Part shown: positions 2,835 through 56,292 of the stretch, in pieces
Layout: each line of letters opens with the position of its first letter
How positions within the stretch are numbered: position 1 is the stretch's first letter
Source: an uncultured Candidatus Binatia bacterium
GTDB taxonomy: Bacteria > Desulfobacterota > Binatia > UBA9968 > CAXXLF01
Reading direction: 5' to 3'
Assembly (NCBI GenBank): GCA_965218425.1
Contig: OZ244621.1
Location: 2,279,369 to 2,343,368 of the forward strand
Length of the DNA stretch: 64,000 bases
Made by a program: the position numbers and the translations under genes
Notes under the pieces: generated by a model
Database searches by the model: none
Told to the model about the DNA's origin: nothing
The model's input: only the letters and a program-made list of their open reading frames with translations

Positions 2835-4205
2835 ATGACCACGAAATACGATGCCATCGTTATCGGTACAGGCCAGTCGGGCCCTTCCCTGGCCGCGCGG
2901 ATGGCGGGTGAAGGAATGAAAGTTGCCATCATTGAACGCAAGTCGTTTGGTGGCACCTGCGTTAATACCGGTTGAATACCCACCAAGACCCTGGTGGCCA
3001 GTGCCCATGCCGCTCACATTGCAAGGCGTGGGGCTGAATACGGGGTGATGATCGGCGGGCCGGTCACCGTGGATATGAAAAAGGTCAAGGAGCGTAAGGA
3101 CAAGGCGGTGCAGCGGTCCAATCAGGGAGTGGGCAATTGGGTCAAGAACCTGAAGAACGCTAAGGTTTACGAAGACCACGGGCGGTTCGAGGGACCCCAC
3201 GCGGTGCGTGTGGGAGGGGAGCTCATAGAGGCGGATAAGATTTTCATCAATGTCGGCGCGCGCGCGTCGGTAATGGACCTCCCTGGGGTAAATTACTTCA
3301 CCAATTCGAGCATCATGGAGGTGGATTTTCTCCCAAAGCACCTGATCGTGGTCGGCGGAAGCTACATCGGCCTGGAGTTTGGTCAGATGTACAGACGCTT
3401 CGGCAGCGAAGTGACCATCGTGGACCGTGGGCCTCGGTTGACCCAGCAGGATGATGAGGACACTTCCCTGGCGATCAAGGAGATTTTGGAAGCGGAGGGG
3501 GTGAACGTTCGGCTCGAAGCTGAATGTATTTCTGCTGCGCAAAAGGGCGATCAGATCACCGTCAATTTGGACTGCAAAACCGGAGGTAAGGAGGTAACGG
3601 GTACCCACCTGCTGCTCGCCATCGGACGGCGTCCCAACACGGACGACCTGGGCATAGATAAAGCAGGCCTCGAAGTGGATCGGCGGGGGTACATCAAGGT
3701 GGACGATCGGCTTCAGACCAACGTGCCTGGAGTTTGGGCCATTGGGGACTGCAATGGCAAGGGAGCCTTCACCCACACCTCGTATAACGACTATGAAATT
3801 GTTGCGGCCAATCTGTTCGACGACGACCCACGCCGGGTCAGCGACCGAATTTTAACCTATGGGATGTTTATCGATCCGCCCCTCGGACGCGCGGGAATGA
3901 TCGAAGATGCAGTGAAAAAATCAGGCCGCAAAGCGTTGATAGCAAAGAGGCCCATGACTCGTGTGGCGCGCGCCGTGGAGAAAGGCGAGACACAGGGATT
4001 TATGAAGATCTTGGTGGATGCCGAAACCAAAGAGATCCTCGGGGCCGCCGTCCTTGGTGTTGGTGGCGATGAAATCATTCATTCCATCCTGGATGTGATG
4101 TACGCCAAGGCGCCCTGCACGGTTATTCAGCGGGCTGTCCACGCCCACCCAACGGTGTCGGAGCTGATACCCACCATGCTGGGGGACCTGAAGCCGCTGG
4201 AGTGA
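2835..4205 (+). CDS. FAD/NAD(P)-dependent pyridine nucleotide-disulfide oxidoreductase (mercuric reductase / RclA-like class I) with selenocysteine at the redox-active site (GGTCVNTG-U-IPTK)
   Basis: ATG 2835 preceded by AGGGGAG RBS. GxGxxG FAD motif (VIGTGQSG). In-frame TGA at 2973-2975 sits exactly where the second Cys of the conserved CVNxGCIPSK disulfide motif is expected, and the frame continues uninterrupted to 4205 with a second Rossmann motif and the C-terminal HAHPTxSE dimerisation signature. A 7-bp hairpin lies at 2979-2998, just 3' of the TGA. Confidence 0.8.
2979..2998 (+). promoter_or_regulatory. hairpin immediately 3' of the Sec-TGA of the oxidoreductase (candidate bacterial SECIS core)
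   Basis: CCCACCA-AGACCC-TGGTGGG-like 7-bp stem / 6-nt loop at 2979-2998. Confidence 0.4.
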
Positions 4206-5310: not shown

Positions 5311-6273
5311 ATGCAGAGCTTCGCTGAGAAAATAAGACAAAGCGGCGACAGCTTCCTCAAGCGCAAGGTGGAAACCCTGCAGGTTAACATGGGGAAGTAC
5401 TGCAACCAGGCATGCCTGCACTGTCACGTGGAGGCGGGACCCACCCGGAAGGAAATCATGACTCTGGAAACGGTAGAGTCGGTGCTCCGTTTCCTCGAGA
5501 AGTCCGATGTGCCCACAGTGGACATCACGGGGGGCGCGCCGGAGCTCAACCCGCATTTCGACTACCTCGTGGAGCGCAGCGTCCAGCTTGGCCGCCACGT
5601 GATGGACCGATGCAATCTCACCGTCATCTTTGAACAGGGGAAGGAGTATCTCCCGGACTTCTTTCAAAAAAACCGGGTGGAGCTGATCTGCTCTCTTCCC
5701 TGCTACACAGAGGGGAACGTAGACCAACAGAGGGGCAAAGGGACCTTCAATCTGAGTATCCGGGCGCTGCGGCTTCTGAACGGCCTGGGATATGGAGTCG
5801 AAGGCACGGGTCTGGAGCTGCAATTGGTCTATAACCCGGTGGGGGCTTACCTTCCGTCGCCCCAGGAACGATTGGAACAGGACTATAAGACTATCCTCAA
5901 GGAAGAATACGGCATCGTTTTTAACCATCTCTACTGTCTTACCAATGTGCCCATCACTCGATTTGAGACCTTTCTGAAGGTGCGAAACGAGTATGACCGG
6001 TATATGGAGCTGATCCAGTCCGCGTTCAACCCGGATACCGTGGACAAGGTCATGTGCAGAAACATCTTGAGCGTAGGATGGGAGGGGTCCGTTTACGACT
6101 GTGACTTCAATCAGATGCTGGAGCTGCCGGTCTCGAACCGACAGGGTAAGCCGCTAAAGATCCAGGACCTCCATGCCGATGGCCTGGAAAATCAATCAAT
6201 CGTGGTCGGAAATCACTGCTACGCCTGTACGGCGGGAGCCGGGAGTAGCTGCGGCGGTTCATTAATAGCGTAA
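5311..6273 (+). CDS. arsS: arsenosugar-biosynthesis radical SAM (seleno)protein ArsS family, Cys form
   Basis: CNQACLHCHVEAGP radical-SAM cluster motif, DITGGAPELNP, CDFNQMLEL, and the family-specific C-terminal HCYACTAGAGSSCGG tail. No in-frame TGA here. Confidence 0.8.
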   Translation: MQSFAEKIRQSGDSFLKRKVETLQVNMGKYCNQACLHCHVEAGPTRKEIMTLETVESVLRFLEKSDVPTVDITGGAPELNPHFDYLVERSVQLGRHVMDRCNLTVIFEQGKEYLPDFFQKNRVELICSLPCYTEGNVDQQRGKGTFNLSIRALRLLNGLGYGVEGTGLELQLVYNPVGAYLPSPQERLEQDYKTILKEEYGIVFNHLYCLTNVPITRFETFLKVRNEYDRYMELIQSAFNPDTVDKVMCRNILSVGWEGSVYDCDFNQMLELPVSNRQGKPLKIQDLHADGLENQSIVVGNHCYACTAGAGSSCGGSLIA

Positions 6274-6275
6274 CC

Positions 6276-6345
6276 GCCGCTTTGCGCTGATGGTAAAACG
6301 CAAAGCGCATGGCGCTATACGCAAAGCGTCTTTTCAGTGACGGGT
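6276..6345 (+). terminator. hairpin-rich putative terminator / repeat element downstream of arsS
   Basis: CCGCTTTGCGC...GCGCAAAGCG inverted repeats (two nested stem-loops) followed by TCTTTTC. Confidence 0.4.
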
Positions 6346-6652
6346 TACGAGTACCGAGTGGAAATTGAGGGTGGGTCAAGGGTGTAGTGAAGTCCGCACT
6401 GTCAACCCTCCACTCCCTAACCTGACCCTTAAACACTTTCCACCGGCTACACCGTTTTCTGCTTACTGCGATCTTCATACGGTTTTCTTTGGCGTCTTGG
6501 CGCGAAAAACTCTTTTGAATTCGTTCTTTTAAAGAATTGATGGGTAGAATTCTAACGGCAAGGCGGGGCCGTGCAGGTCAGGCAGTGAGATTGAGGCGCC
6601 TAGACCCGGCCCCCCACAGGACCCGCAATTCGTTTGGGTTTTGCTCAGCTAG

Positions 6653-6847
6653 ATGGTAAATTACCCCATGGCTGATACATTCCTAAAGCGCAAGAAGGAG
6701 CAGGATCGGCAGAAAAAAAAGAGGGAAAAAGAGGCCATGCGACAGGACCGTAAAGCGGAAAAAGCGAATCGTAGGCCCCTGACTCCAGGCGAAGACCCTG
6801 ACATCGCGGGGATCAAGCCCGGCCCTCAACCGCCGATCGACTGGTAA
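6653..6847 (+). CDS. small highly basic hypothetical protein (64 aa, Lys/Arg/Glu-rich)
   Basis: ORF only; composition resembles small nucleic-acid-binding proteins; no recognisable family. Confidence 0.25.
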   Translation: MVNYPMADTFLKRKKEQDRQKKKREKEAMRQDRKAEKANRRPLTPGEDPDIAGIKPGPQPPIDW

Positions 6848-7012
6848 TCCGCCCCTTCACGAGCAACCTGACGTCCTTCCGCATTCACCCCTTGGACCAG
6901 AGGCCAAGTGCCGTCCTCTTTCAGCCTTATGAAAGACTTTTGCATGTCTCCGAACCCGGCGTTCTTTACCGCTCTCTGCCGGCAATCGTTGATCCGAATC
7001 GCTAAACGCGAA

Positions 7013-8317
7013 TCAGGCGCTATCCTCTGCTTTACTCTGCTTCCGATCCGACTCCAGTGACGCCAGCGCCTCCTTTACCAGCTTGCGCCGTAATTCTTTC
7101 TCTTCCTCGCCCGTCAGGTTTGCCGCGCCGGTGACGTGGACTATGCCGTTGCCCAAAACGACGCGGTTGGAACCGACCATCTTTGCAATGGGCATGGCCG
7201 AGGTAATCTGGACCACCGGGATGCCCGCCTTTTCCAGCTCGGTTGATATCGCAGCTCCGCTGCGAGTGCTCGTTCCTCAGGTGGAGGTGAGGATGACGGC
7301 GTCGACCTCCTCCCGCTTCACTTTTTCGGCCATCTCCCTGCCCAGGCGCCGCGTGTTCGAGAGCGGGTTCGATAGACCAGATGTGGAGATGAACTCGTGG
7401 TGGAGTTTTCCGATCCTGCCGCTTCTTTCCATCTCGCGCATGGCGTCGAGGGGCACGAGACGGTCCGGATCCTGTTGAACGAATCTCGGATCATAGCCGC
7501 CGTGAGAGATCTCGTAGTCCTCCCCCCTGAGATCATCCCGGCCGTCGATGCTATAGGAGCCCCACCGGGTGGCGGCTTGTCCTTCGATTTTGTCCGGGTT
7601 GCCCTTCGGAACGAGGCCGCCGTCGGTGATGAGCATGACCTTGGCCTTCGAAAGATCCCCCACGGCGGAGGGCATGGGAACCGGTTTAAAGGAAGTCGGC
7701 AACATCTCAGACTCGAAGGGCTCTCCTTTCACTTTCGTCAGGAGCATATCAACGAGCCGGACGGCGGCCGTCCGATCCGCCAGTTGATCGCGCAGGATAC
7801 CCCGGGAAAGGTAGCCTTCCTCTGCGGGCAGCCCGATGGACTTACCGTGGACGAGCTTTCCTCCCAGACGCGCCATTTTGGTTAGGACTTGCCGCATCTT
7901 GGCGGGGCTCGCACCCGAATTCACGATATAGAGCGCTTCCCGGTTGAGATCCGCCCCCGGGTTCTCGCTGCCCATCCCGGTAACGACGGGAATCCCCAGG
8001 TTGGACTGAACGGCGGCGCAGAGGGACCCCGCCGCCATCCCATATCGACCCGCTTCGAAGCAAGGACCGGCAACGAACAGCTCTGCACCCGCCTCCCGGA
8101 CCTTTGCCAGCACCGCGGCCGTCAACTCCTCCTGGTGTTCCACGGCATGGTTGTCTCCGGAAATGAGGGTCATAACCACACGTGAGCCATCGCCCAGCAG
8201 TTGTTCCAACAGCCTCCCCGGTCCTACGGCCCCCTCACGCGCCTCAAGGGGCATGCCCGCCTGCTCCTCTCCCCCGACTCCGCCGAAAAACTGATTCAAA
8301 TAGTGTACGATTCGCAT
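7013..8317 (-). CDS. grdB: glycine/sarcosine/betaine reductase component B selenoprotein (GrdB family) with in-frame Sec codon
   Basis: N-terminus MRIVHYLNQFFGGVGGEE...GPCFEAGRYG...GIPVVTGM matches GrdB. ORF 7277..8317 ends in TGA (7277-7279) in context EEVDAVILTST-U-GTSTRSGA, and the 67-aa ORF 7013..7216 is its in-frame continuation (...IPVVQITSAMPIA...EEEKELRRKLVKEAL). Confidence 0.85.
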
Positions 8318-8350
8318 TTTTTGACCCTCCTCACCGGATTCGCGACTGGA

Positions 8351-9631
8351 TCAAGTGACCAAAGCCCGCATTCTCGAGGCTCCCTGTTGATTGGTGACGC
8401 CGGCAACGTTCGCAGCGGCGACCTTCGTCGGTCCGGCCAACACCCTCCTCAACTCCGGGGTCGCGGCGATGATCCGATCCACCGGTGCCAACGTGTAATT
8501 CGTTCCGTTTCCGCCGTTGTATACGATGGCATTCACCTCCGGAAAGTTGAAGAGCAGAGCCGACTCGACCCGCCTGTCCCTTGCCATGTCCGAGACCATG
8601 ACAGTGGTTTTTATGCCCATACCTTCCAGGAGCCGAGCGGTCTCCGCCAAGTCGGCATGGGGAACACCGCCGCCGTACTTGGTTAGAATGACGGCGTCCG
8701 CTTTCAACGCCCACCTGACCAGATTCGCAGCCGTCCGACAGTTTCGGTCGCGGTCGAAGTTGTCGGAACCGGCAACGGTCGCCACCGTGCCCACGAAGTT
8801 GAGATGCCGCGCATGGTGGCGACCGTAGAGCTCCAGGATCACGGGGTGATTTTGATAGAAGTAGGTTTCCGCGCCGCCGATGGAAGAATGGTACGATGGG
8901 ACGACGGCGCCGTCCAGCCACTCGTCGGGATGAAGCGGGATGGGCAGCATCCCTTCCGTGTTGGCGCCATAGAGAATGGGCTCGTCCACGCCGGGCTTTC
9001 GCTGGCGCGAGAAGATCTGGCCTACATATGCGACCCGGGGAAGCCCCTCGCGTCCCGCCTCCGCGGGACCCGCCGGGTCGAATTGACGGGTGGATGCCGC
9101 AGGCTGACTCGCCGCAATGCGGGCCATATGAACCGAGAGCCTGAGACCGGCCCGACGATACGCTTTTCCGATGCTTTGAGCGGGCAACTCCGAACGCGTA
9201 CGGGGAATCGCCACCAGGTGGTGCAACGAGGAGTAATTGCTGCCTTCAGCGGCTGCCCCGCTCATCTCCAATACCCGGCCCGTCACGCCCCTGGACTCTC
9301 CCGGAGACCTCTCCGCCAGAACGGTGACGACGGCTCCTTCGAGCACATGGGTCGTCCCCATGCCCGCCGTTTCCGGCGCACCCAGGATGCCCGGGAAATC
9401 AGGGCTTGAGCCCTCTCCTTTAGCTCTGGGCTCGATGATGTCGAAGACGGGCGCGGCCCGACAACTCTCGCCGGGGCGCACGATTTGGAAATCCACGCCG
9501 GTAAGGGCATCGTCTTCAAGAACCAACCGGCGCAGTTCCTCCGGATCGACGACGAGGACCGAGCCGTCGAGACGGGCCGGTGTTTCCAAGCGGATCTCCG
9601 TGATGGGGTGACATGCCAGGGTCAAACGCAT
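8351..9631 (-). CDS. grdE: glycine reductase component B alpha/beta proprotein (GrdE family)
   Basis: MRLTLACHPITEIRLE...IVRPGESCRAAPVFDIIEPR... matches GrdE N-terminus; ~425 aa; internal N-C pair (DRDRNCR) as possible pyruvoyl-forming self-cleavage site. Confidence 0.75.
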   Translation of the reverse strand: MRLTLACHPITEIRLETPARLDGSVLVVDPEELRRLVLEDDALTGVDFQIVRPGESCRAAPVFDIIEPRAKGEGSSPDFPGILGAPETAGMGTTHVLEGAVVTVLAERSPGESRGVTGRVLEMSGAAAEGSNYSSLHHLVAIPRTRSELPAQSIGKAYRRAGLRLSVHMARIAASQPAASTRQFDPAGPAEAGREGLPRVAYVGQIFSRQRKPGVDEPILYGANTEGMLPIPLHPDEWLDGAVVPSYHSSIGGAETYFYQNHPVILELYGRHHARHLNFVGTVATVAGSDNFDRDRNCRTAANLVRWALKADAVILTKYGGGVPHADLAETARLLEGMGIKTTVMVSDMARDRRVESALLFNFPEVNAIVYNGGNGTNYTLAPVDRIIAATPELRRVLAGPTKVAAANVAGVTNQQGASRMRALVT

Positions 9632-9751
9632 TTTTCTTTCCTCTCGTGAAGACCCGGCAAGGGACCGGGAGTCCTCCAGGAGCGAGCGCAATCTCAGACC
9701 GGCTACTGCTCTGCTTATACCTCAAAGCAAGCTTGCCGCCAAGGGTTCAGC

Positions 9752-10219
9752 TTATCCGTCGGCGAGCCCGGAGCGAACCTCCCGCATCGCCGTGGCGATA
9801 GCCTCGGTTTCCACTGCCATCTCGATCAGGCCCACCTCGTCGGCGTAGGTCTCGGGGTCCACCTGCTCCTTGATCTCGGGCTCGGTGATGTGGAAGACGG
9901 GGAGTTTCAAGCCGACGCCGCCGAGCGCTCCCGCCCAGGTCGGATCCCCATCGGTCATGGTCAGGCCGAACAGTTTGCTGCTCTCTGCGGTGGGAGTTCC
10001 GAGAAGGACAACGACACCGGCAGTCCCCGTGGCGTCTACCTTCCGTTTGATTTCTTCTTGACCTTCCAGGTCAAGCGCGCCCGACGCCGTTCAGACGAAA
10101 CAGTGGGTGAGTTCAAGGATGACTTCGGCGCCCGCGCTTTTCGCGCAAAGAGCGATGGAGTTGCCTTGAACGCCGTCTCTTTCTCCCAGAACAATGACTT
10201 TCTTCCCGTTCAGCTTCAT
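9752..10219 (-). CDS. grdA: glycine reductase selenoprotein A (GrdA) with in-frame Sec codon
   Basis: ATG at 10219 with GGGGG RBS. Translation MKLNGKKVIVLGERDGVQGNSIALCAKSAGAEVILELTHCFV-U-TASGALDLEGQEE... closely matches GrdA (…TECFVUTAAGAMDLE…). TGA at 10091-10093; 155 codons. Confidence 0.9.
10057..10075 (-). promoter_or_regulatory. hairpin 3' of the grdA Sec-TGA (candidate SECIS)
   Basis: CUUGACC-UGGAA-GGUCAAG perfect 7-bp stem, 16 nt downstream of UGA on the mRNA. Confidence 0.5.
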
Positions 10220-10335
10220 AACGCCCCCGTCATTCATATCGAGCCGAGACTACGACCTCGCCAAGCCGGAACATCTAGCAGAGGACAGTAGGCGGCAAGA
10301 AATCAACCTCTTGACCTTACTTTTCTTAAATTTAG

Positions 10336-10394
10336 CTTTGACCGCCGCATACCGCTTACTGCGAACTGCTTACTGGTTTCGCTTTGCGCGAGTC
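10336..10394 (+). repeat. 58-bp GC-rich intergenic repeat, copy A (between grdC and grdA)
   Basis: GCCGCATACCGCTTACTGCGAACTGCTTACTGGTTTCGCTTTGCGCGAGTCATC; ~93% identical to the reverse complement of 62384-62445. Confidence 0.8.
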
Positions 10395-10402
10395 ATCCCC
10401 GG

Positions 10403-11854
10403 TTAGTTTTTCGGGTTACGCTCCAATACAAAGGATAATCCGTCCGCCATCTGAGTCATGCGGCCTAAAAACAGGCTCCCTTTGGCCAAGAACATGGCTC
10501 GATCCATAGCCCCCGACACGATACGGTCCACTGCGTGCCCCAGGAAAGGGATCGCCGAGGCGATATGGCCCTGAGTCGGGGCATAACCGGGCATTCCGTG
10601 TGTTTCCGCAAAACTTGAAATCTCGTTAGGGGCGATCTCTTTGTTCCGCGCCGCCAGGGCGGCGATAAGCCTGTAGTTCGTCAACGGAACGTTGCCGTTT
10701 CCGGACGGTTCCGTCACCTCCGGGTTGTGCAGCTCGGTGGCGTACTTGTCGATATCCCCGAAGCGCAATTTTAGTTTCTGCAGCGGCTCGGCCACCAGTG
10801 AGCCGAAGACGGCCTGCTGGCTCGAGCCGGCACCCACCCGGTGCATACCGACGGAATCCAGCCTTAGCCAAGGATGTTTCCCGTCGTCCCCGGAGACGTG
10901 GATGGCAACTCCCGCCAAAACATCCTCCAAGACCGGTTGTTCGTGTTTGAGATGGCCTTGAAACTTCATCCCGAGTTTCGCCAGAGAGCCGCCCCCGACG
11001 ACCACCACATTGCGGAACACACCCGCGCTCACGAGGCTGCCGGCCAGCAGCAAAGCATGGTTCGGACCCGAGCAAAAGCCTTTGACGTCGACCCCGCTCG
11101 CCATGGAGCACCCGCACATTTCCCCGATGGCCTTCGCCAGGTTTCCTCCGCCGCGCTGGTAACGGTCGCCCACCGCCTCCTCGCCGCTGTTTAGAACATA
11201 ATCAATGGCAGCGGCCTGTGCGCCTTCACCCTTCAGGAGCGTCTTCAGGGCCACTACCGCCGTCGCCTTGCAGGCCAGGTTCTCGAGGAGAATGTCGGGC
11301 GCAAGGGAGCGGTCCTCCCGATCGCCCGGCAGGACGCAGCCCACCAATTGCCCGTCCCGCAGATTGAGGGGGAGCGCGGGCGACGGACCGTCGATCCGAG
11401 CCTCGATGGCGGAGAGCGGCTTGCCGTCGTTGAGGTTCGCGGCTTCCACCTTCCCGAAGAGCGGATGGAGTTCCAACGCCCGCCGCGCCGTCCCGAGAAA
11501 ACCTTCCTCGAGCCAAAGCAGCCCGAAGAGATCGCAGAGCTTCATGACGGCGTAAAACTCCTCTTCCGGCATGAATTCACCATGCCGTTGCCGCCGTTCC
11601 GTATCCTGTCTCACGGCAAACCAGGGCCGTTGGAGGGATTTCAGTTCATCGGGGTAGATGGATCCTAGAAATACCCGGTTCGGCGGATAGGACAAAGCGT
11701 CCTCGAAGGAACGGAGCCGCTCCCGAATTCGTTCGCTTACCGCCGCTTCCCGGACGATTTCACGCGCCGGTTTCGAGCCGTGGGTGACAAGTCCGGGCGT
11801 ATGAGATAAAAAGTAGCGAACGGCCTTGATGACTGGTTGATTTCCCGGGGGCAT
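10403..11854 (-). CDS. grdC: glycine reductase complex component C-like protein (GrdC-like, beta-ketoacyl-synthase-like fold)
   Basis: 483 aa; size and context (immediately upstream of grdA-grdE-grdB) fit GrdC. Assignment GrdC versus GrdD is from size only. Confidence 0.5.
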   Translation of the reverse strand: MPPGNQPVIKAVRYFLSHTPGLVTHGSKPAREIVREAAVSERIRERLRSFEDALSYPPNRVFLGSIYPDELKSLQRPWFAVRQDTERRQRHGEFMPEEEFYAVMKLCDLFGLLWLEEGFLGTARRALELHPLFGKVEAANLNDGKPLSAIEARIDGPSPALPLNLRDGQLVGCVLPGDREDRSLAPDILLENLACKATAVVALKTLLKGEGAQAAAIDYVLNSGEEAVGDRYQRGGGNLAKAIGEMCGCSMASGVDVKGFCSGPNHALLLAGSLVSAGVFRNVVVVGGGSLAKLGMKFQGHLKHEQPVLEDVLAGVAIHVSGDDGKHPWLRLDSVGMHRVGAGSSQQAVFGSLVAEPLQKLKLRFGDIDKYATELHNPEVTEPSGNGNVPLTNYRLIAALAARNKEIAPNEISSFAETHGMPGYAPTQGHIASAIPFLGHAVDRIVSGAMDRAMFLAKGSLFLGRMTQMADGLSFVLERNPKN

Positions 11855-11979: not shown

Positions 11980-13479
11980 ATGATCCGTCTCTCAACGATT
12001 CCCAATCGGGCGCACCTGATCAACTGGTTTGAATGGGGGGAAGAGGCGTTCCGCGCGGCTCGAGGCCACAATAAGCCCTTGATGCTTTTTTTGCACGCCT
12101 TTTGGTGCCGTATCTGCCAGCGAATGGACGAGGACGCCTTCTCTAACGACGAGAATATCACGTTGCTGAACGCCTACTTCGTCTCGGTCCGGGCGGAGAA
12201 CGCGAAGCGGCCCGACGTGGACGTTCGCTACAATCAAAACGGGTGGCCCACGATTGTTTTCATGACCCCGGAGGGGGAACAGCTCGCCTGCGCGAACAGC
12301 CTTGACGCGGAGGCGCTCGGAAGCCTTTTGGTTCGGGTCTATGAGGCTAATCGGAAGATTCGAAACGAAGTTCGCGGGAAAAAGGGAACACTCGCACGGG
12401 CCCCACGCGAGGCCGCGAGTCGGCCGGACCCCATCGACCATCGGGACTCTGGCGTTTCGGAGATTACCCAGCTGATCATGGGGCTCGCCGACCGCGTTCA
12501 CGGCGGCTACGGGCATGGTCGGAAATATATCCATTCGGATGCGAACGATTTTTTGCTCTCCCGTTATGGAGCGGCAAAGAATTCCGACTATCTCGATCAC
12601 GTGTGTTTAACTCTCGACCGGATGCGGGAGAGTCCGATCCACGATCGTGAAGAGGGCGGGTACTACCGCACTGCCTCCGGTGAGGACTGGAGCGGCCCCC
12701 ACCGGGAAAAGCTTCTGGCGGATCAGGCGGGCATCCTTAACAACTGCCTGGGGGTTTTCGAGATCACTAAAAACCCAACCTATGCGCGTATGGGTGAAGG
12801 CATTATCGACTACCTGAATAACAGGCTTTTGGATTCTTGCAGCGGAACCTATTTCGGTTGCGAGGATTTTATTCGAAGCGAAGACAAGGATGCTTCTTCC
12901 CGGGCAGGGTATTTCTCCATCCTGGACGACTGTATTTACACGGACGCGAACGCCGACGCCATCGGCGCTTACCTCAGAGCCTATGCCGTGTTGGGCAAGT
13001 CGGCCTGCAAGGAGATTGCGTTAAAGGCGCTGGAATTCATCTGGGACAAATGCCGGAGTCCCCGAGGGGGAGTCTATCATTACTTCGACGGCGCGCCTCA
13101 CGGGCCGGGATTGCTCGATGATCAAGCGCGCCTGGGCGCGGTGTTGGTGCATGCATGGAAAGCCACCGGCGAAACTCGGTATCTGGACCGCGCGAAGGAT
13201 TTGGCCGAATTCATTCTGGCGAGACTGAGAAACCCGGCCGGCGGCTACTACGATCTTTCGGCGCCGGGAGCCGCATACCTCCGCTACCCGCTGACTCTGA
13301 TCGAACGGAACGGAGCCGCTGCGGCGTTTTTTTTCGCCCTCGCCGAGTCCAGAGGCGAGGCCAAATACCGGGACGCAGGGGTTTGGGCCATCGGCGCGTT
13401 CACGGGAGATTTCGGTCGGTACGGAATTCACGCGGCGGGGTTCGGTCGAGCGCTCGCTGAATTCGTGCGGCGTCCTTAG
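11980..13479 (+). CDS. DUF255 / YyaL-family thioredoxin-domain protein (thioredoxin-like N-domain plus alpha/alpha-toroid domain)
   Basis: N-terminal NWFEWGEEAFRAARGHNKPLMLFLHAFWCRICQRM (DUF255 thioredoxin-like with CxxC), long helical C-terminal domain. Confidence 0.7.
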   Translation: MIRLSTIPNRAHLINWFEWGEEAFRAARGHNKPLMLFLHAFWCRICQRMDEDAFSNDENITLLNAYFVSVRAENAKRPDVDVRYNQNGWPTIVFMTPEGEQLACANSLDAEALGSLLVRVYEANRKIRNEVRGKKGTLARAPREAASRPDPIDHRDSGVSEITQLIMGLADRVHGGYGHGRKYIHSDANDFLLSRYGAAKNSDYLDHVCLTLDRMRESPIHDREEGGYYRTASGEDWSGPHREKLLADQAGILNNCLGVFEITKNPTYARMGEGIIDYLNNRLLDSCSGTYFGCEDFIRSEDKDASSRAGYFSILDDCIYTDANADAIGAYLRAYAVLGKSACKEIALKALEFIWDKCRSPRGGVYHYFDGAPHGPGLLDDQARLGAVLVHAWKATGETRYLDRAKDLAEFILARLRNPAGGYYDLSAPGAAYLRYPLTLIERNGAAAAFFFALAESRGEAKYRDAGVWAIGAFTGDFGRYGIHAAGFGRALAEFVRRP

Positions 13480-14086: not shown

Positions 14087-15274
14087 ATGAGTGGATTGCG
14101 CGTACTGGTCGGCACGCGAAAGGGAGCATTTATCCTGACTTCGGACGCAGTGCGCCGGCGGTGGCAGGTCAGTGGTCCCCATTTTGCGGGCTGGGAGATC
14201 TACCATGTGAAAGGCTCTCCCGTGGAACCGAACCGACTCTATGCATCGCAGTCCAGTGGCTGGTTCGGGCAGATCATTCAACGTTCCGATGACGGCGGCA
14301 AGACTTGGCATCAACCCGGTACACCAAAGGGGGAGCCCGCCGCCACCCCGCAAGGCATGCCCAAGAGCGAGAGCAACAGGTTCGTTTACGATTCGTCTCC
14401 CGAAACCGGCAAGCCGCTTACCACGCACCAGTCGTACGACGGCACTCCACAACCGTGGGAGTTCAAGCGAGTCTGGCACCTCGAACCTTCGCTGAGCGAT
14501 CCTGACACTGTCTATGCCGGAGTGGAAGACGCGGCCTTGTTCCGCTCCACCGACGGCGGGCAGACGTGGCAAGAAGTCTCCGGTCTGCGCGGCCACGGCA
14601 CGGGATCTTCATGGCAGCCGGGTGCGGGTGGGATGTGCCTGCACACGATCCTTCTGGATCAGAGCAACCCGAACCGGATCTTCACCGCCATTTCGGCCGC
14701 GGGCGCCTTCCGCAGCGACGACGCCGGCAAAACGTGGCAACCCATCAACAGCGGTTTGAAGTCCGAATACATTCCCGACCCAACAGCGGAGGTGGGGCAT
14801 TGCGTGCACCGCCTCGCCATGCATCCTTCGCGTCCGGACGTGCTTTTCATGCAGAAGCACTGGGACGTCATGCGAAGCGATGATGCCGGCGGATCATGGC
14901 GCGAAGTGAGCGGCAATCTGCCCACTGACTTCGGGTTTGCCGTTGACGTTCACGCGCATGAGCCTGACACCGTCTACGTGGTTCCCATCAAGAGCGACTC
15001 GGGGCATTTCCCTCCCGAGGGAAAGCTCCGGGTGTACCGCAGCCGCACGGGTGGAAACGAGTGGGAGCCGCTTACCAAAGGGCTGCCGCAGCGCGATTGT
15101 TACGTCAACGTGTTGCGCGACGCCATGGCAGTGGACTCGCTGGATTTGTGCGGCGTGTACTTCGGCACCACCGGCGGGCAGGTATACGCCTCAAGCGACG
15201 CGGGTGACAGCTGGATCCCCATCGTTCGGGATCTCCCGGCTGTGCTTTCGGTTGAAGTCCAGACTCTGCCATGA
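14087..15274 (+). CDS. BNR/Asp-box repeat protein (sialidase-like beta-propeller fold)
   Basis: Five SxDxGxTW Asp-box repeats ([40 protein letters not shown]). Confidence 0.75.
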
Positions 15275-15567
15275 TCCGGGTGGCGCTCCCTACGCAACTC
15301 AAAAAACTCGCGCGGGTCGAGGGTGAGGTAAGGCTCCAAATCGAGGGTCCGGTCACGCAGGGCTCGGTTCTCGATGCCCTCGAAGCCCGGTATCCGATGC
15401 TCCGCGGGACCGTCCGCGATCAGGTCACGCAAAAGCGGAGAGCGTTCGTGAGATTTTTCGCCTGCGGAGAGGACCTGTCCCATGAAACGCCGGACACCGC
15501 GCTGCCTGAAAAGGTCGCCACGGGCGCGGAACCGTTTCTGATCGTTGGCGCCATCGCCGGGGGCTAG
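15271..15567 (+). CDS. MoaD/ThiS-family beta-grasp sulfur-carrier-like protein (C-terminal GG)
   Basis: 98 aa ending ...[10 protein letters not shown]; ATGA overlap with the upstream BNR gene stop. Confidence 0.6.
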
Positions 15568-16042
15568 AGCCGGCAAGGCATCGTGCAAGTTGCTATTATG
15601 TCCCCGGAACTCGAAAGTAAATATGTCGAAGTCCGTCCCCGAATACAGGCGATGTTTGCGGCGAGAAAATAAATCCGTCCCCATTGATGATTACTGATTA
15701 ACTTCGCGGCCGTCTTCGAGTCTCAATCGGAGGCACTCATCACCGACGTTAAAGAAGCGGCTTTTGCACGTCCAGTCCTCACCTCGATAGTTCAGCTTTG
15801 CTTGTTTTCCCGGCAATCATGTTGTGAAAAGCAAAACGTAGAGGCGCGGCACGTATTCACTTATGCGGTGGACGAATCACAGGCCGCGGGAGATCGTCAA
15901 GATTGAAAGGCCTGACCCCGTGACCGTGACTGACCCCGGCCACACTCTCCACATCGCCCGTTGCCTTGACAGGCAATAGGACGAGTGATATTGCCAAAGC
16001 ACGGATACTCTGGTGCGATGAGGCAGTGACAAAGGAGGCGAG

Positions 16043-17527
16043 ATGGCTTTAGGGACGGCTGAGATTGTGAAAGACGGCACCGATAAACCTTCGCAGGCCC
16101 CCCTGCTTCTGACCCGCGACCTGCATGGTTTTGTCCGGGAGTACGAGCGGGCCTATCCCGACGAGGTGGTGCACATCGAGAAACCGGTCGACGGCAAATG
16201 GGAGATCACCGCTCTGACCATGAAGCTGGAGCAGGCGAAGCGGTTCCCTTTGCTGGTCTTCCATAACGTCCTCATTAACGGCAAGCGGGCGGAGATGCCG
16301 CTGATGACCTTCATGATGGCAAGCCGCCTCAGGCTCGCTCGCGCCATGGGGGTTACGGTGCAGGAGGCCGGGATAGACTGTTTCGAGCGGGTGCAGCGGC
16401 GCGTGAAGCCCGTGGTGGTCTCCCGGTCGAGAGCCCCGGTCAAACAAGTGATCGAGAAAGGGGCGGAGATAGACGTTCGGCGCTTTCCCGCGCCTCACCA
16501 TCACAAGATGGATCCCGGAAGGTACATCACCGAGGGACTGTTTCTGACCTTCAACCGCACGAGCGGCCTCGACAATTCCGCGTATCATCGCGGCTGGCTC
16601 TCGGGACGCGACGAGATTCGCGTCCACCTGGGTCCCCATTCACACAACAGACGCAATCTCCGGGAGTACGAAGGGGCCGGCGAGGACATGCCCGCCGCCT
16701 ATTGGATCGGCCATCACCCGCTGGTCCTCCTGGGCGCGGAAAACCATATCGGACCCGATGAGAGCCATTACGAGACCGCCGGGGGGACCCTGGGCAGTCC
16801 CATGAGGCTCGCACCGTCGGAAACTCTGGGAGAGAACTTTCTCGTGCCTGCGGACGCCGAAGTGGTCATCGAAGGCTACGTGCCCCGCAACCTGCGGGGG
16901 CCCGAGGGACCCTTCGGGGAATTCACGCGCTACGTGGGGCCCCAGAACTGGGGGCCGATGTTCAAGGTCACTGCGGTCACCCGCCGCCGGGACGCCTACT
17001 GGGACGACGTCATGGTCGGGCACACCCACTGGCTGAGCAGCCTGACCAAGGAAGGCGACGTGCTCCGGGCCGTGCGTAAGCTCGTCCCGGGCGCCAAAGC
17101 CGCCCATGCCCCTATGTCCGGGTGCGGCGTGATGCACATGTACCTCCAGATCAAAAAGACCCTGGAAGACCACGGCAGGTCGGCCGCCATCGCGGCGTTC
17201 GGCTCGAGCCCCGGGATCAAGCATGTGTTCGTCTTCGACGAGGACGTGGATATCTTCCAGGAGAAGGAGGTCCTCCTGGCGCTCGCCACCCGATTCCAGG
17301 CGGACCGCGGCCTCATCGTCTTGAACGACATGATCGGCACCGCCCTGGACCCCAGCTCCCCTGGAAAGACCCGAACAACCAAGATCGCCTTCGACTGCAC
17401 CAAGCCGTTGGGCAAGCCCTTCGCCGAGCGACTATCGATCCCGGAGGAGATCCTCGAAAAGATGGACCCGCTGGAGCTGGTGGGAGGGGATCGTTTCGAA
17501 AAGATCCCCATGGAGCCCTGGGGTTAA
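16043..17527 (+). CDS. UbiD-family (prFMN-dependent) decarboxylase
   Basis: 494 aa; UbiD-family signatures throughout (…GPEGPFGEFTRYVG…, …KHVFVFDEDVDIF…ATRFQADRGL…). Confidence 0.8.
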   Translation: MALGTAEIVKDGTDKPSQAPLLLTRDLHGFVREYERAYPDEVVHIEKPVDGKWEITALTMKLEQAKRFPLLVFHNVLINGKRAEMPLMTFMMASRLRLARAMGVTVQEAGIDCFERVQRRVKPVVVSRSRAPVKQVIEKGAEIDVRRFPAPHHHKMDPGRYITEGLFLTFNRTSGLDNSAYHRGWLSGRDEIRVHLGPHSHNRRNLREYEGAGEDMPAAYWIGHHPLVLLGAENHIGPDESHYETAGGTLGSPMRLAPSETLGENFLVPADAEVVIEGYVPRNLRGPEGPFGEFTRYVGPQNWGPMFKVTAVTRRRDAYWDDVMVGHTHWLSSLTKEGDVLRAVRKLVPGAKAAHAPMSGCGVMHMYLQIKKTLEDHGRSAAIAAFGSSPGIKHVFVFDEDVDIFQEKEVLLALATRFQADRGLIVLNDMIGTALDPSSPGKTRTTKIAFDCTKPLGKPFAERLSIPEEILEKMDPLELVGGDRFEKIPMEPWG

Positions 17528-17636: not shown

Positions 17637-20633
17637 TCAGGCCTCGGGCCGTTCGTACGTCAGACCGAACACCGTGTCCGTCATCCAACGCCGAAAAGAC
17701 TCGTTGTCCATGAACTGCTTGAAAAGCTCGGTGTCGTCCTTGAGCACGGCCGTCATCACGCGCGCCAATGCCTTATCGTGCTCGATACGGGCGTTCTGCT
17801 TGTCGGAGTTCCGCTTCGCGTTCCGGTAGGCCGTGTCCGCCGCGACGCGATTCGGGATGTCCTCGGTGATCAGCCTGTGCACCCGGTCCGAGTCGGTCCA
17901 CCGGATATTCCCGAACATCTCGTTGAAGGTCTTGAGGATGTTCGAGAGGCGGTCGAGTTCGGGTTCAGGTTTACGGCCGCCGCCGCCGGCCGGCACCGGC
18001 CCGATCTCGGCTTCCTCGTCCGGCAGTCGGACCTGCATCGCCGCCTTCTTCTCGACCCGGTAGCTGTCCATGTCGATGGACTCAAGGATGCCTCTGGACA
18101 GATCCTCTTCCACGGGCGCGGGGAGCTTCGGCACGAGGAAGTTCAGGAAGATGGAGAGCCTCTCCCACTCGGCGTTCGTGTAGGGCAGGATAGCGGCGAG
18201 GAAGTCGTACGCGCGCCCGAACGCCTTGGCCTTGCCCTTGAAGTCCACCTGCCCGTCCTCGTCGAGCTGCTCCCTGTAATGCGCAACGCAGGCGTCGAGG
18301 ATGGGGTCGAGCCGGTCGCGGTCGGCCCCACCGAGGTAGAGCGTCACGAGCCGGTCGATCTCCGCGTCGGCATAGACCTGGTAGCCGTCGAGGGCGGCCT
18401 TGAGGTCGTGCAGCTTGTTGGGATCGGTCTCCTCGCTCAGGATCGTCGTCCGGTAGTAGTCGGCGAACGCCGCTTGGATGGTGTTGGCATCGTTCATGAA
18501 GTCGAGGACGAACACGTCGTGTTTCTGCGGGTGCGCCCGGTTGAGACGCGACAGCGTCTGGACCGCCTTGATCCCGGACAGGACCTTGTCCACGTACATC
18601 GTGTGCAACAGCGGCTCGTCGTACCCGGTCTGGAACTTGTCGGCGCAAATGAGGAACCGATACGGGTCCTGCCGGATCTCGTCGGCGATCCGCCCGGGCG
18701 GGAAGCCGTTGAGGGACGCCTCACTGACCTTACCCCCGCCATACTCGTGCTCGCCCGAGAAGGCCACGATGGCCTGATACGGGCTCCTGCGCTCCAGGAG
18801 GTACTGCCGGATCGCGTGGTAATACTGGACCGCGCGCTCGATGCCGCCCGTCACCACCATCGCGCGGGCCTTGCCGCCGATCTTGTGGAGCGCCAGCACC
18901 TGTTCGTGGAAGTGGTCCACCATGATCTCGGCCTTGAGCCGGACGGCATGGTCGTGGCTCTCGACGTAGCGGCGCAGCTTCTTGCGGGCGCGCTTGGTGT
19001 CGAACTCGGGATCACCCTCGATCTTCTTGACGAGCTTGTAGTAGCTCTCGACCGGCGTGTAGCGCCCGAGCACGTCCAGGATGAAGCCCTCCTGGATCGC
19101 CTGCTTCATGGTGTAGCCGTGGAACGGTCGGCGCCTGGTCTTCCCGCCCGCGTCGTACGCTTCGCCGAAGGTCTCCAGCGTCTTGTTCTTGGGCGTGGCG
19201 GTGAAGGCGAAGTAGCTCGCGTTCGTGAGGAGCTTCCGCGCGTCCATGATGCGGTTGATCATGTCCTCGGCGGTCTCGTCCTCCTCCTCGGCGCCCGCCT
19301 CGGAGAGCGCCATGTTGAGCGCTGCCGAGGTCCTGCCGCCCTGGCTGGAATGCGCCTCGTCGATGATGATGGCGAAGCGCCGGCCCCGCTGCTCGTTCCC
19401 GATCTCTTCGAGGATGAACGGGAACTTCTGCACCGTCGAGATGATGATCTTCTTGCCGCTCTCGATAAACGCGCGGAGGTCGCCCGAGCGTTCGGCGTGA
19501 CCGACGGTGGCCCCGACCTGGGCGAACTGCTTGACCGTGTCGCGGATCTGCTTGTCGAGGATGCGCCGGTCGGTTACCACGATGATGGAGTCGAACGCCT
19601 CCGCGCCGTCTTTCCTGAGCCCGATCAACTGGTGGGCGAGCCAGGCGATGGAGTTGGACTTCCCGCTGCCGGCCGAGTGCTCGATGAGATACCGTTTCCC
19701 TGCGTCGTGCCGGCCGACGTCCGCCAAGAGGTTCCGCACCACGTCGAGCTGGTGGTAGCGCGGCCAGATCTGCACCGCACTCCTCTTGCCCGTCTTCTCA
19801 TCCTTGGCCTCGACGACCTGCGCATAGTTCTCCAGGATGTCGGTCAGCCCGTTGCGGGTAAGCAGGCGCTTCCAGAGGTAGTCGGTCTTGAGGCCGTTCG
19901 GGTTGGGCGGATTGCCCGCGCCGTCGTTCCAGCCCAGGTTGAAGGGCAGGAACCACGAACCCTTGCCCTTGAGGTGCGTGCAGAACCGCACCTCGTGGTC
20001 GTCCACCGCGAAGTGCGCCACGCAGCGGCCAAACTCGAAGAGCTTCTCGCGCGGGTCGCGGTCGCGTTTGTATTGCTGGACGGCGTCCTCGACAGTCTGC
20101 TTGGTGAGGCTGTTCTTCAGCTCGAAGGTGGCTACCGGCAGGCCGTTGATGAACAGGCCCAGGTCGAGAGCGAGCTGCGTCTCGTCGCGGCTGTAGCGGA
20201 GCTGGCGCGTGACCGAGAAGCGGTTCTGGGCGTAGCGTTCAGCGGCGAGGGGGTTGCCGGGAGACGGCGCGCCGTAGAAGAGTTCGGCGTGATGCGGCCC
20301 GTCCTTGACCCCCTTGCGGAGCACGTCGATGACGCCGCGCTTGCCGACCTCGCCTTGAAGACGCGCCAGGAACTTGCGCCGCGTCGGGCCGTCCTCTTCC
20401 AGGGCGAGCACCTCGGACGCCTTCGGTTGCGTCTCCCGCAGGAACTCCGAGAGCTGGACCAGGTCCACGCAATACTCCCGGTCGTAGTCGTTCGGGTTGC
20501 CGCAGATCCAGCCGGCGCCATAGGCGGCCGGACGCTCGCGCACCACGCCCGCTTGCGCCGGATCGCAGGGGGCTCCCGTCAGAGCCGCGCAGATGAGGCT
20601 TTCAAGTCCCTTCTCGCCGGTGTCGGTGGTCAC
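17637..20633 (-). CDS. hsdR: type I restriction-modification system endonuclease subunit R (HsdR)
   Basis: 998 aa; N-terminal endonuclease region, helicase motif I (HSAGSGKSNSIAW), DEAH box (IIDEAHSSQ), motif VI region; full length for the family. Confidence 0.9.
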   Translation of the reverse strand: MTTDTGEKGLESLICAALTGAPCDPAQAGVVRERPAAYGAGWICGNPNDYDREYCVDLVQLSEFLRETQPKASEVLALEEDGPTRRKFLARLQGEVGKRGVIDVLRKGVKDGPHHAELFYGAPSPGNPLAAERYAQNRFSVTRQLRYSRDETQLALDLGLFINGLPVATFELKNSLTKQTVEDAVQQYKRDRDPREKLFEFGRCVAHFAVDDHEVRFCTHLKGKGSWFLPFNLGWNDGAGNPPNPNGLKTDYLWKRLLTRNGLTDILENYAQVVEAKDEKTGKRSAVQIWPRYHQLDVVRNLLADVGRHDAGKRYLIEHSAGSGKSNSIAWLAHQLIGLRKDGAEAFDSIIVVTDRRILDKQIRDTVKQFAQVGATVGHAERSGDLRAFIESGKKIIISTVQKFPFILEEIGNEQRGRRFAIIIDEAHSSQGGRTSAALNMALSEAGAEEEDETAEDMINRIMDARKLLTNASYFAFTATPKNKTLETFGEAYDAGGKTRRRPFHGYTMKQAIQEGFILDVLGRYTPVESYYKLVKKIEGDPEFDTKRARKKLRRYVESHDHAVRLKAEIMVDHFHEQVLALHKIGGKARAMVVTGGIERAVQYYHAIRQYLLERRSPYQAIVAFSGEHEYGGGKVSEASLNGFPPGRIADEIRQDPYRFLICADKFQTGYDEPLLHTMYVDKVLSGIKAVQTLSRLNRAHPQKHDVFVLDFMNDANTIQAAFADYYRTTILSEETDPNKLHDLKAALDGYQVYADAEIDRLVTLYLGGADRDRLDPILDACVAHYREQLDEDGQVDFKGKAKAFGRAYDFLAAILPYTNAEWERLSIFLNFLVPKLPAPVEEDLSRGILESIDMDSYRVEKKAAMQVRLPDEEAEIGPVPAGGGGRKPEPELDRLSNILKTFNEMFGNIRWTDSDRVHRLITEDIPNRVAADTAYRNAKRNSDKQNARIEHDKALARVMTAVLKDDTELFKQFMDNESFRRWMTDTVFGLTYERPEA

Positions 20634-55350: not shown

Positions 55351-56292
55351 ATGGAGAAAAAAAGCCACTACCGCGTAATCATTCTGGGATCCGGTCCGGC
55401 GGGCCTTACCGCCGCCCTCTATGCGGCCAGGGCAGAGCTGGAGCCCCTGGTGATAGAAGGGAGCCAGCCGGGGGGCCAACTAACCATTACCACCGACGTG
55501 GAGAACTATCCAGGATTTCCCAAGGGTATCCTTGGTCCCGAACTGATGGATGAATTCAAAAGACAGGCGGAGCGATTTGGTACCCGGACTTTATTTGGCG
55601 ATGTGACAGAGGTCAGCCTCCAGAAAAGGCCTTTTCAGCTCGAAGTAGGTAAAAATACCCTCACGTGCGATACTCTTATTATTTCAACGGGTGCCTCGGC
55701 AAAGCTTTTGGGGCTGGAATCGGAAAAGAAACTGATGGGATACGGCGTCTCGGCCTGCGCCACCTGCGACGGTTTTTTCTTTAAAGAAAAGGAAGTGGTC
55801 TGCGTCGGGGGAGGAGACACGGCCATGGAGGAGGCCACCTTTCTCACCAAGTTCGCTTCAAAAGTCCATGTGGTCCATCGCCGGAACAAGCTCCGGGCAT
55901 CGAAAATCATGCAGGATCGCGCCATGAAAAACCCCAAGATCAATTTCATCTGGGACAGTGTAGTGGAAGAGATTAACGGTGATTCCCAAAATGGTGGCGT
56001 CACCGGTGTGAGGCTAAAGAACGTAAAAACGGGAAAGACCGAGGAGTTTAAGTGTGACGGTGTGTTTCTGGCCATCGGGCACGAACCCAACAGCAAGCCC
56101 TTCGCGGGACAGTTGGAAATGGATGAGCAGGGATATATCCTCACCCATGACGGTACCAAGACCAGCATTCCTGGCGTCTTTGCCTGTGGCGATATACAGG
56201 ACCATGTCTATCGTCAGGCTGTCACCGCTGCCGGCTCCGGTTGCATGGCGGCCATCGATGCGGAACGGTTCTTGGAAAGCCAGGAATCCTGA
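55351..56292 (+). CDS. trxB: thioredoxin-disulfide reductase
   Basis: 313 aa; GSGPAG FAD motif, CATC redox motif, [15 protein letters not shown] motif. Confidence 0.9.

Follow-up and report, generated by a model that had tools for sequence, protein, structure and literature searches.

A Grd-type selenoprotein operon from Candidatus Binatia with a cysteine-poor protein B, a GrdE-like partner lacking the pyruvoyl site, and no adjacent grdD

Textbooks describe Grd-type selenoenzymes from anaerobes that ferment amino acids. The textbook system closest to the locus described here is glycine reductase, formed by GrdABCDE and TrxAB in Peptoclostridium acidaminophilum, Acetoanaerobium sticklandii, Clostridioides difficile and Tissierella sp. 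P1 (locus L068 of this study); its genes lie in the order trxB-trxA-grdE-grdA-grdB-grdC-grdD, and GrdD makes acetyl phosphate. Self-cleavage of canonical GrdE turns Cys242 into a pyruvoyl group (Bednarski et al. 2001, cited in PMC10838667), and PMC6778437 and PMC13188914, both citing Wagner et al. 1999, place the motif U-x-x-C-x-x-C (U, selenocysteine [Sec]) in GrdB, GrdF and GrdH. The far system of Cloacibacillus porcorum MFA1, whose operon is induced by fluoroacetate and which is proposed to feed the common GrdA/protein C, has a FarB without the CxxC and a FarE without the processing cysteines (PMC10838667). We analyzed a four-gene operon in the order grdC-grdA-grdE-grdB, located on the minus strand (7013-11854) of a 64-kb stretch of DNA from an uncultured Candidatus Binatia bacterium; this whole stretch is referred to as the window, and coordinates are window positions. 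Judging from its sequence, the operon is a genuine selenocysteine-containing system homologous to glycine reductase. With a probability of about 0.6, it would encode a functional Grd-type selenoenzyme system of a distinct environmental lineage that works without three textbook hallmarks.

Like glycine reductase, the system comprises a homologous GrdA (CxxU), a GrdE-family partner and a GrdC with the same nucleophilic Cys, and its GrdB carries Sec at the same position in the context TST-U-G, with a hairpin of the selenocysteine insertion sequence (SECIS) type after each TGA. Unlike glycine reductase, its GrdB lacks U-x-x-C-x-x-C, Cys96 and Cys372, its GrdE-like protein lacks Cys242/Cys246, its GrdC is about 25 amino acids (aa) shorter, there is neither a GrdD nor an adjoining trxB-trxA pair, a DUF255 gene is its neighbor, the gene order differs, and its hosts are non-Bacillota environmental lineages. 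The closest precedent is FarB/FarE (NCBIfam NF053623 for FarE), which likewise have no CxxC after Sec and no autoprocessing cysteines. The component families are known, and the losses of the cysteines and of the pyruvoyl site have a precedent in FarBE. A literature search revealed no paper on the protein B clade described below, on a GrdD-less Grd system, or on a link between DUF255 and Grd proteins. The lineage, a cysteine-poor, pyruvoyl-less and GrdD-less version of Grd, is widespread in soil and groundwater and uncharacterized: one protein search alone yielded thousands of related database sequences, assigned to Binatia, Acidoferrales, Dehalococcoidia and related environmental metagenome-assembled genomes (MAGs).

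Selenocysteine codons and the motif of protein B

An earlier note on this DNA had described a grdC-like/grdA/grdE/grdB operon with two in-frame TGA codons, each followed by a hairpin, and we found all four genes and both codons at the minus-strand positions first noted (Table 1). A longer grdE-like open reading frame is possible from a TTG at 9691, whereas public gene calls start at the ATG and give 426 aa. Past the TGA, the frame stays open for another 87 codons in grdB and 112 codons in grdA. In grdB, about 80 residues of protein sequence after the TGA are conserved in every locus, and the best 120 database homologues of GrdB all terminate at residue 346, that is, at the TGA. The announced hairpins were present in both genes. 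That of grdA, with its 8-bp stem, begins 16 nucleotides downstream of the UGA; that of grdB begins 12 nucleotides past the UGA and spans the codons R-S-G-A-A, Ser353 included. Across 21 loci, the grdB stem CGCAGC-GGN-GCUGCG was frozen, with each of its five stem codons invariant at synonymous sites and only the loop base varying, whereas neighboring codons for invariant amino acids made use of 2 to 5 synonymous codons. The features by which bacterial selenoproteins are recognized, namely, an in-frame UGA, a SECIS hairpin with a G in the apical loop, and a frame conserved beyond the UGA, were all observed. Since the frame and the protein are conserved past the TGA, the grdB stem is frozen at synonymous sites and database homologues of GrdB end at the TGA, both TGAs are, as far as sequence can tell, functional Sec codons. 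An Rfam scan of the window matched no family, SECIS models included, and a tRNA search of the window found no tRNA and no tRNA-Sec.

To define the motif of protein B, we read grdB genes past the TGA at 80 loci from genomes (GTDB species representatives) and 80 loci from metagenomes. The residues at positions +3 and +6 after Sec were Cys and Cys (U-GTC-TRC-GA) in 70 genes from Bacillota, Synergistota, Calditrichales, Cloacimonadales and Desulfovibrio, so that the canonical motif given in the earlier note agrees both with the literature and with genes read directly. Ser and Cys were found in 30 genes (Rokuibacteriota, Methylomirabilia, Anaerolineales and soil contigs), Gly and Cys in 5, and Ser and Gly in a single gene of Planctomycetota; for 3 genes, the residues were different or the motif was not read. 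The replacement of both cysteines by serine, U-GTS-TRS-GA as in the window, was confirmed there and is invariant in 25 related loci (hereafter U-S-S loci). These belong to Candidatus Binatia, Candidatus Acidoferrales, Thermodesulfobacteriota, "deltaproteobacterial" MAGs and Dehalococcoidia, and include soil and marine contigs. Both motif serines are always encoded by AGC, a single step from the Cys codon UGC, and Ser353 lies within the SECIS stem.

In a neighbor-joining tree of 85 full-length proteins, the U-S-S GrdBs were monophyletic with a bootstrap of 100/100, and their sister group consisted of U-x-x-S-x-x-C proteins of Rokuibacteriota/Methylomirabilia. Genes of the latter motif (L028, L045, L073, L038 and about 25 soil metagenome contigs) occur in Rokuibacteriota, Methylomirabilia, Anaerolineales and "deltaproteobacterial" MAGs; only L028 and L045 are sister to the U-S-S clade, and the other loci branch elsewhere. 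Like the window, these uncharacterized loci have a short GrdC followed by GrdA, a GrdE without Cys242 and no GrdD. Unlike the window, they retain Cys353 and Cys96, have no DUF255 neighbor, and in some cases carry trxA between grdC and grdA.

The loss of cysteines extends beyond the motif, as illustrated by a column comparison of GrdB and GrdE between 20 members of the U-S-S clade and 48 canonical GrdE (window numbering). Sec347 was present in both groups, whereas the conserved canonical residues Cys96, Cys350, Cys353 and Cys372 of GrdB were lost in the clade. Cys100, found in 48% of canonical proteins, was retained in 18/20 clade members, and Cys86 (AGPCF), an Ala or Gly in canonical GrdB, was specific to the clade and present in 20/20. 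Cys53, conserved in canonical GrdB, was retained in 19/20. At this position (8159-8161, minus strand) the window reads SGD, where those 19 clade members and all other GrdBs examined have CGD; the aligned sequences thus make the window GrdB even poorer in cysteine than its clade relatives, because it carries Ser at residue 53.

The window GrdB reached the level of the selenoprotein B subfamily (TIGR01918), with Sec at the conserved TST-U-G position. Its scores were below every equivalog cut-off: 421 bits against 602 for GrdB (TIGR01917), 472 against 800 for sarcosine reductase GrdF, 424 against 775 for GrdH, and 88 against 300 for the D-proline reductase PrdB, whose profile matched only the C-terminal half of the protein. 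Control proteins were assigned as expected, with 764 bits for GrdB in Tissierella (L068) and 774 bits for GrdH in a second copy of Anoxynatronum, and the non-Bacillota Ser/Cys GrdBs likewise fell below equivalog assignment. Nobu et al. (PMC9751293) have published signature motifs of GrdB and GrdF. The window protein fails the former, with SGD for CGD, GPCFEAGRYG for GPxF[NF]AGRYG, RLVPLD for RV[IL]PxD and STSGLSNPL for TxGNxTxV, and also does not match the latter at several positions. The proposal of the earlier note that this GrdB belongs to a divergent protein B subfamily with a different substrate or mechanism is thus supported by the clade, the low profile scores, the failed motifs and, as shown below, the GrdE partner without the pyruvoyl Cys.

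Among the candidates scored, 5,209 GrdB-like and 1,488 GrdE-like relatives passed the thresholds. A sequence search of the Protein Data Bank (PDB) with GrdB and the GrdE-like protein returned no relatives with a solved structure. In an AlphaFold2 model of GrdB (pLDDT 95), which has two alpha/beta domains, Sec is predicted at the start of a helix, between strand 340-344 and helix 349-363, and Cys53 and Cys86 at the ends of neighboring strands. A Foldseek comparison of this model with the PDB gave only generic two-domain alpha/beta matches with a TM score below 0.2.

In L073 (Anaerolineales MAG OZ252150.1), a second GrdB copy (18323-19630) has an additional in-frame TGA at the Cys96 column (GRYGIA-TGA-G). 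We rejected it as Sec/Cys evidence for a redox-active Cys96, since a TAA at codon 319 makes this copy probably a pseudogene or an assembly error.

The GrdE-like partner, GrdC and GrdD

The canonical processing site SGN/C242VSAC corresponds to PSY-H-SSIGG in the GrdE-like protein of the window, and the aligned segment is free of Cys for about 20 residues on either side of the canonical cleavage position. Cys242 and Cys246 were present in 48/48 canonical GrdE and in 0/20 partners of the U-S-S clade, in which the Cys242 column is occupied by H, Y, W, S, Q or N (His in the window). The pyruvoyl cysteines are also missing from GrdI-type partners, as in the second copies of L027 and L036. The NCBIfam scores of the GrdE-like protein were far under the cut-offs, with 172 bits against 780 for the sarcosine reductase subunit GrdG and 140 against 675 for FarE. 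An N-C self-cleavage site in GrdE, considered in the earlier note, did not hold: the RNC sequence at residue 298 is not homologous to the canonical site; canonical proteins have Ser in its column, and just 16/20 clade members have Cys there. The GrdE-like protein most likely does not self-cleave at all. Paired with GrdB, it makes up a protein B that has neither a pyruvoyl site nor thiols adjoining Sec.

The single protein C-like gene reported for the window encodes a protein that spans positions 1-476 of the 477 positions of the reduct_C_beta profile and is 43% identical to Tissierella GrdC. A GrdC-GrdD fusion, the alternative raised for this 483-aa protein, was rejected, as the match is confined to the GrdC profile. 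GrdC proteins of this short type measure 482-488 aa, as compared to 508-516 aa for canonical GrdC, and are 51-73% identical to the window GrdC; the FabH-type nucleophile Cys261 is kept in short and canonical proteins alike. Similarly, every grdA gene examined, 9 of them non-canonical and 45 canonical, encodes the CFV-U-T motif.

For the remaining components, we used NCBIfam-verified Tissierella TrxB, TrxA, GrdE, GrdC and GrdD as tblastn references. GrdD and TrxA had no match anywhere in the 64-kb window, and a true TrxB is encoded 43 kb away from the operon, so the absence of a recognizable grdD near the operon and the remote location of trxB were as the earlier note had described them. The absence of GrdD extends to the relatives of the operon. 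GrdD was present in 38/38 loci that have a canonical long GrdC and sufficient downstream sequence, and followed GrdC directly wherever the gene map was inspected, whereas it was absent from 64/64 loci with a short, window-like GrdC, in which grdA usually comes directly after grdC. At the level of gene content, the missing GrdD is thus a trait of the lineage. When neighboring genes were clustered, no gene with an evident role in acyl release, such as Pta or AckA, proved to be conserved near related loci. In five short-GrdC loci (L038, L065, L073, L118 and L129), a small trxA lies between grdC and grdA, still without grdD; the gene order in L038, L065 and L073 is grdE-grdB-grdC-trxA-grdA.

The DUF255 gene, proposed function and alternatives

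A DUF255 gene starts 125 bp from grdC on the opposite strand, in divergent orientation. The N-terminal thioredoxin-fold domain of its product carries the CxxC sequence WCRIC, and the motif AFWCxxCQRMDE was invariant in 8 DUF255 orthologues. The earlier statement that there are no thioredoxin genes beside the operon hence holds for TrxA and TrxB, but not for this adjacent gene with a thioredoxin fold. The closest solved chain is 7TKV. As in 7TKV and the DUF255/YyaL/SSP411 (SPATA20) family, the CxxC domain is followed by an alpha-helical domain, with faint Pfam matches to epimerases and six-hairpin glycosidases; unlike 7TKV, which has 668 aa, the window subfamily is about 500 aa long, has the AFWCxxCQRMDE motif and shows a genomic tie to selenoprotein B genes. 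No biochemical function for the bacterial DUF255 family turned up in a literature search.

The genomic tie is specific to one type of protein B. In the fetched flanks, DUF255 was found beside or inside U-S-S grdE/grdB clusters at 12/25 loci, as compared to 1/109 loci of other types, and this lone locus also contains a U-S-S copy. When three loci that had been fetched through DUF255 itself were left out, the linkage was 9/22. Gene arrangements varied. In the window, L003, L004 and L006, DUF255 is transcribed divergently from grdE or grdC; three MAGs of Binatia and Syntrophobacterales (L007, L008 and L012) have it upstream of grdE-grdB in the same direction; in L015, a Dehalococcoidia MAG, it separates grdB from grdE; and in L106 and L107, at least one of these contigs being marine, it lies between grdA and grdE. 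The two latter loci (8001-14342 in L106 and 8001-13667 in L107, a marine assembly) contain a co-directional five-gene cluster grdC-grdA-DUF255-grdE-grdB of the U-S-S type. In a reciprocal check, 3/5 independently fetched DUF255 homologues flanked a U-S-S grdE-grdB pair; of the candidates that were scored, 690 relatives of DUF255 exceeded the thresholds. The link between DUF255 and U-S-S is strong and type-specific, and it is not obligatory. Because neither grdA nor grdC lies within 10 kb at many U-S-S loci, the conserved core is grdE-grdB, often accompanied by DUF255.

These data are consistent with the following sequence of events. Because the GrdE-like protein has no pyruvoyl site, the substrate would not be held as a Schiff base, which would make glycine and sarcosine unlikely; a likelier substrate would be an alpha-substituted carboxylate with a good leaving group, handled as in GrdHI or FarBE. 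As Sec does in the canonical mechanism, Sec347 of GrdB would attack the alpha-carbon and expel the leaving group, forming a selenoether. The acyl unit would then pass to GrdA and on to Cys261 of GrdC, as the active residues of both proteins are canonical, and would leave GrdC without GrdD, either by way of GrdC itself or to phosphate, CoA, water or an unlinked partner. DUF255 might provide thiols in trans, keeping Sec347 reduced or resolving its adduct, with TrxB, at about position 55 kb of the window, as a possible upstream reductant. On this evidence, the substrate of the lineage is probably not glycine, and the public labels glycine, sarcosine or betaine reductase are probably wrong for it. 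Knowledge of the substrate could uncover a new type of reductive C-X cleavage in soils and would also correct metabolic inferences based on these genes in MAG studies, for example, that of a "reductive glycine pathway." The lineage offers a natural experiment on the role of the CxxC beside Sec in protein B and on whether GrdD is indispensable for acyl release, and it nominates DUF255 as a selenoprotein partner.

A bolder version, which we put forward only tentatively, is that a DUF255 CxxC protein, a non-pyruvoyl GrdE-like protein and a U-x-x-S-x-x-S GrdB might form a self-contained three-gene module, a selenoenzyme of soil and groundwater bacteria for the reductive cleavage of its substrate, in which DUF255 would be the dedicated resolving and reducing dithiol that replaces the lost cysteines of the lone Sec and would stand in for GrdA where grdA and grdC are absent. 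If this were true, it would be the first biochemical role for DUF255/YyaL/SSP411 and a new class of Grd substrates outside anaerobic fermenters.

Several observations weigh against the preferred interpretation. GrdH retains the CxxC although GrdI has no pyruvoyl site; therefore, the two losses are separable. The genome, at 1.5-4.5 Mb, could carry a gene for GrdD, TrxA or acetate kinase at another place. The clustering of neighboring genes gave no clue as to the substrate and returned only heterogeneous catabolic and transport genes. Furthermore, 13/25 U-S-S loci have no DUF255 in their 10-kb flanks, and 2/5 of the fetched DUF255 homologues lie beside Rieske and molybdenum-hydroxylase genes in the absence of grdE/grdB.

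The two latter points, along with the same neighbors at L006, would also be expected if DUF255 were a bystander in a catabolic island, with a generic thioredoxin reducing GrdA and the lost cysteines left unreplaced. We consider this doubtful in view of the type specificity of the link, including the fact that the only other locus shares its DUF255 with a U-S-S copy, of the presence of DUF255 inside co-directional operons in three arrangements and in Binatia, Dehalococcoidia and marine contigs, and of its invariant CxxC.

Substrates of the betaine and haloacetate types are variants of the preferred explanation, that of a Grd system acting on a substrate other than glycine. In a betaine-type, GrdHI-like reaction, glycine betaine or another quaternary ammonium or sulfonium acetate would be converted into an amine or sulfide plus an acetyl unit. 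The loss of the pyruvoyl cysteines in GrdI-type partners fits such a logic, in which no Schiff base is formed (PMC10838667), and some JGI annotations read "betaine reductase." The resemblance to GrdH/GrdI, whose partner subunit is not a pyruvoyl proprotein, is mechanistic only: the window GrdB scored far below the GrdH cut-off, branches away from GrdH in the tree and lacks the U-x-x-C-x-x-C that GrdH retains, and no BCCT/OpuD-type betaine transporter was found among the annotated recurrent neighbors. Such a reaction is thus unlikely. A FarBE-like reductive dehalogenation of haloacetates would account for both peculiarities at once, as FarB and FarE share the missing CxxC after Sec and the missing pyruvoyl cysteines (PMC10838667), and FarE is one of only two NCBIfam families matched by the GrdE-like protein. 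With a score so far under the FarE cut-off, this protein is not orthologous to FarE; there is no farA-type antiporter/transporter or farC-type radical SAM gene conserved nearby, and the hosts are soil and groundwater lineages rather than Synergistota. We thus regard dehalogenation as quite improbable. The window also differs from the far system in that grdA and grdC belong to the same operon and DUF255 is linked. That the operon encodes an ordinary glycine reductase, with GrdD, TrxA and TrxB encoded elsewhere and the Ser-for-Cys exchanges due to neutral drift, is very improbable, since, although GrdA and GrdC exceed their NCBIfam cut-offs, a genuine trxB lies 43 kb away, public annotation names glycine, sarcosine or betaine reductase, and the GrdD search covered the window and the related loci rather than the rest of the genome, the clade partners lack the Cys242 needed to hold glycine as a Schiff base, GrdB misses both the 602-bit cut-off and the published motif, two serines invariant in 25 loci are unlike drift, and GrdD occurs in none of the 64 related loci yet always after canonical grdC.

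Gene neighborhood of the operon

The positions of the operon genes, their selenocysteine elements and other genes of the window are provided in Table 1.

Table 1. Coordinates and properties of features in the window
Feature	Position	Strand	Properties
grdC-like	10403-11854	-	483 aa; NCBIfam reduct_C_beta 615 bits (cut-off 450)
grdA	9752-10237	-	161 aa; motif C-F-V-U-T; Pfam GRDA 174 bits; NCBIfam reduct_selen_A 177 bits (cut-off 130)
grdA TGA	10091-10093	-	context HCFV-U-TASG
grdA hairpin CUUGACCU-GGA-AGGUCAAG	10057-10075	-	candidate SECIS; 8-bp stem in minimum-free-energy and centroid structures; z = -1.74
grdE-like	8351-9631	-	426 aa from ATG at 9631; Pfam Gly_reductase 246 bits
grdB-like	7013-8317	-	434 aa; TST-U-GTSTRSGA; Pfam GRDB 430 bits; TIGR01918 subfamily 455 bits (cut-off 65)
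grdB TGA	7277-7279	-	context LTST-U-GTSTRSGA
grdB hairpin CGCAGC-GGA-GCUGCG	7250-7264	-	SECIS-type; centroid structure of predicted fold
DUF255/Thioredox_DsbH gene	11980-13479	+	499 aa; Pfam PF03190, PF13899, PF13098
trxB	55351-56292		true TrxB
Pyridine-nucleotide-disulfide oxidoreductase	2835-4205	+	candidate selenoprotein; TGA at 2973-2975; NCBIfam NF004992 "FAD-containing oxidoreductase" 775 bits (cut-off 629)
ArsS-type radical SAM/Cys-rich protein	5311-6273	+	TIGR04167; Cys form
UbiD-family decarboxylase	16043-17527	+	
Type I restriction enzyme R subunit	17637-20633	-	HSDR_N, ResIII, SWI2_SNF2; public gene call

The window contains a third candidate selenoprotein, a pyridine-nucleotide-disulfide oxidoreductase in which the TGA replaces the second Cys of the redox motif (GGTCVNTG-U-IPTK) and is followed by a stable hairpin (z = -1.8). 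We rejected this flavoenzyme as a dedicated reductase of the system, since it was conserved beside no related grd locus. An ArsS-type radical SAM gene is located 740 bp downstream of grdB on the opposite strand. Its family, TIGR04167, is a selenoprotein in some organisms, whereas the window encodes the Cys form. This gene was rejected as a FarC analogue because tblastn detected it in the window only and in none of L003-L086, and it is probably unrelated to the operon. The type I restriction enzyme R subunit is likewise unrelated.

The genes around the related loci comprised amidohydrolase_2, luciferase-like monooxygenase, MFS and solute-binding proteins, Rieske oxygenase, molybdenum hydroxylase, GntR and SDR; recurrent near loci of the clade were amidohydrolase_2 (6 loci), dienelactone hydrolase, cupin, NMT1-type binding proteins and luciferase-like monooxygenase. 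A UbiD-family decarboxylase lies a few kb from the cluster both in the window and in Acidoferrales L004 (20085-21281). In the two DUF255 loci without grdE/grdB, L088 and L090, the DUF255 gene (6001-7569 and 6001-7545, respectively) has a molybdenum hydroxylase of three subunits (Fer2, FAD_binding_5, MoCoBD) on one side and the alpha and beta subunits of a Rieske ring-hydroxylating oxygenase on the other. These molybdenum hydroxylase and Rieske neighbors recur in L006, there with grdE-grdB inserted, which suggests that L006, L088 and L090 share a catabolic island. Finally, a second protein B pair with the motif U-GSS-TRC-GA (14861-17438) was observed downstream of the U-S-S pair in L004/L005 (Candidatus Acidoferrales, GCA_035559995.1). 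The two pairs are separated by amidohydrolase_2 and glyoxalase genes, and apparently represent two substrate modules with one common grdC-grdA.

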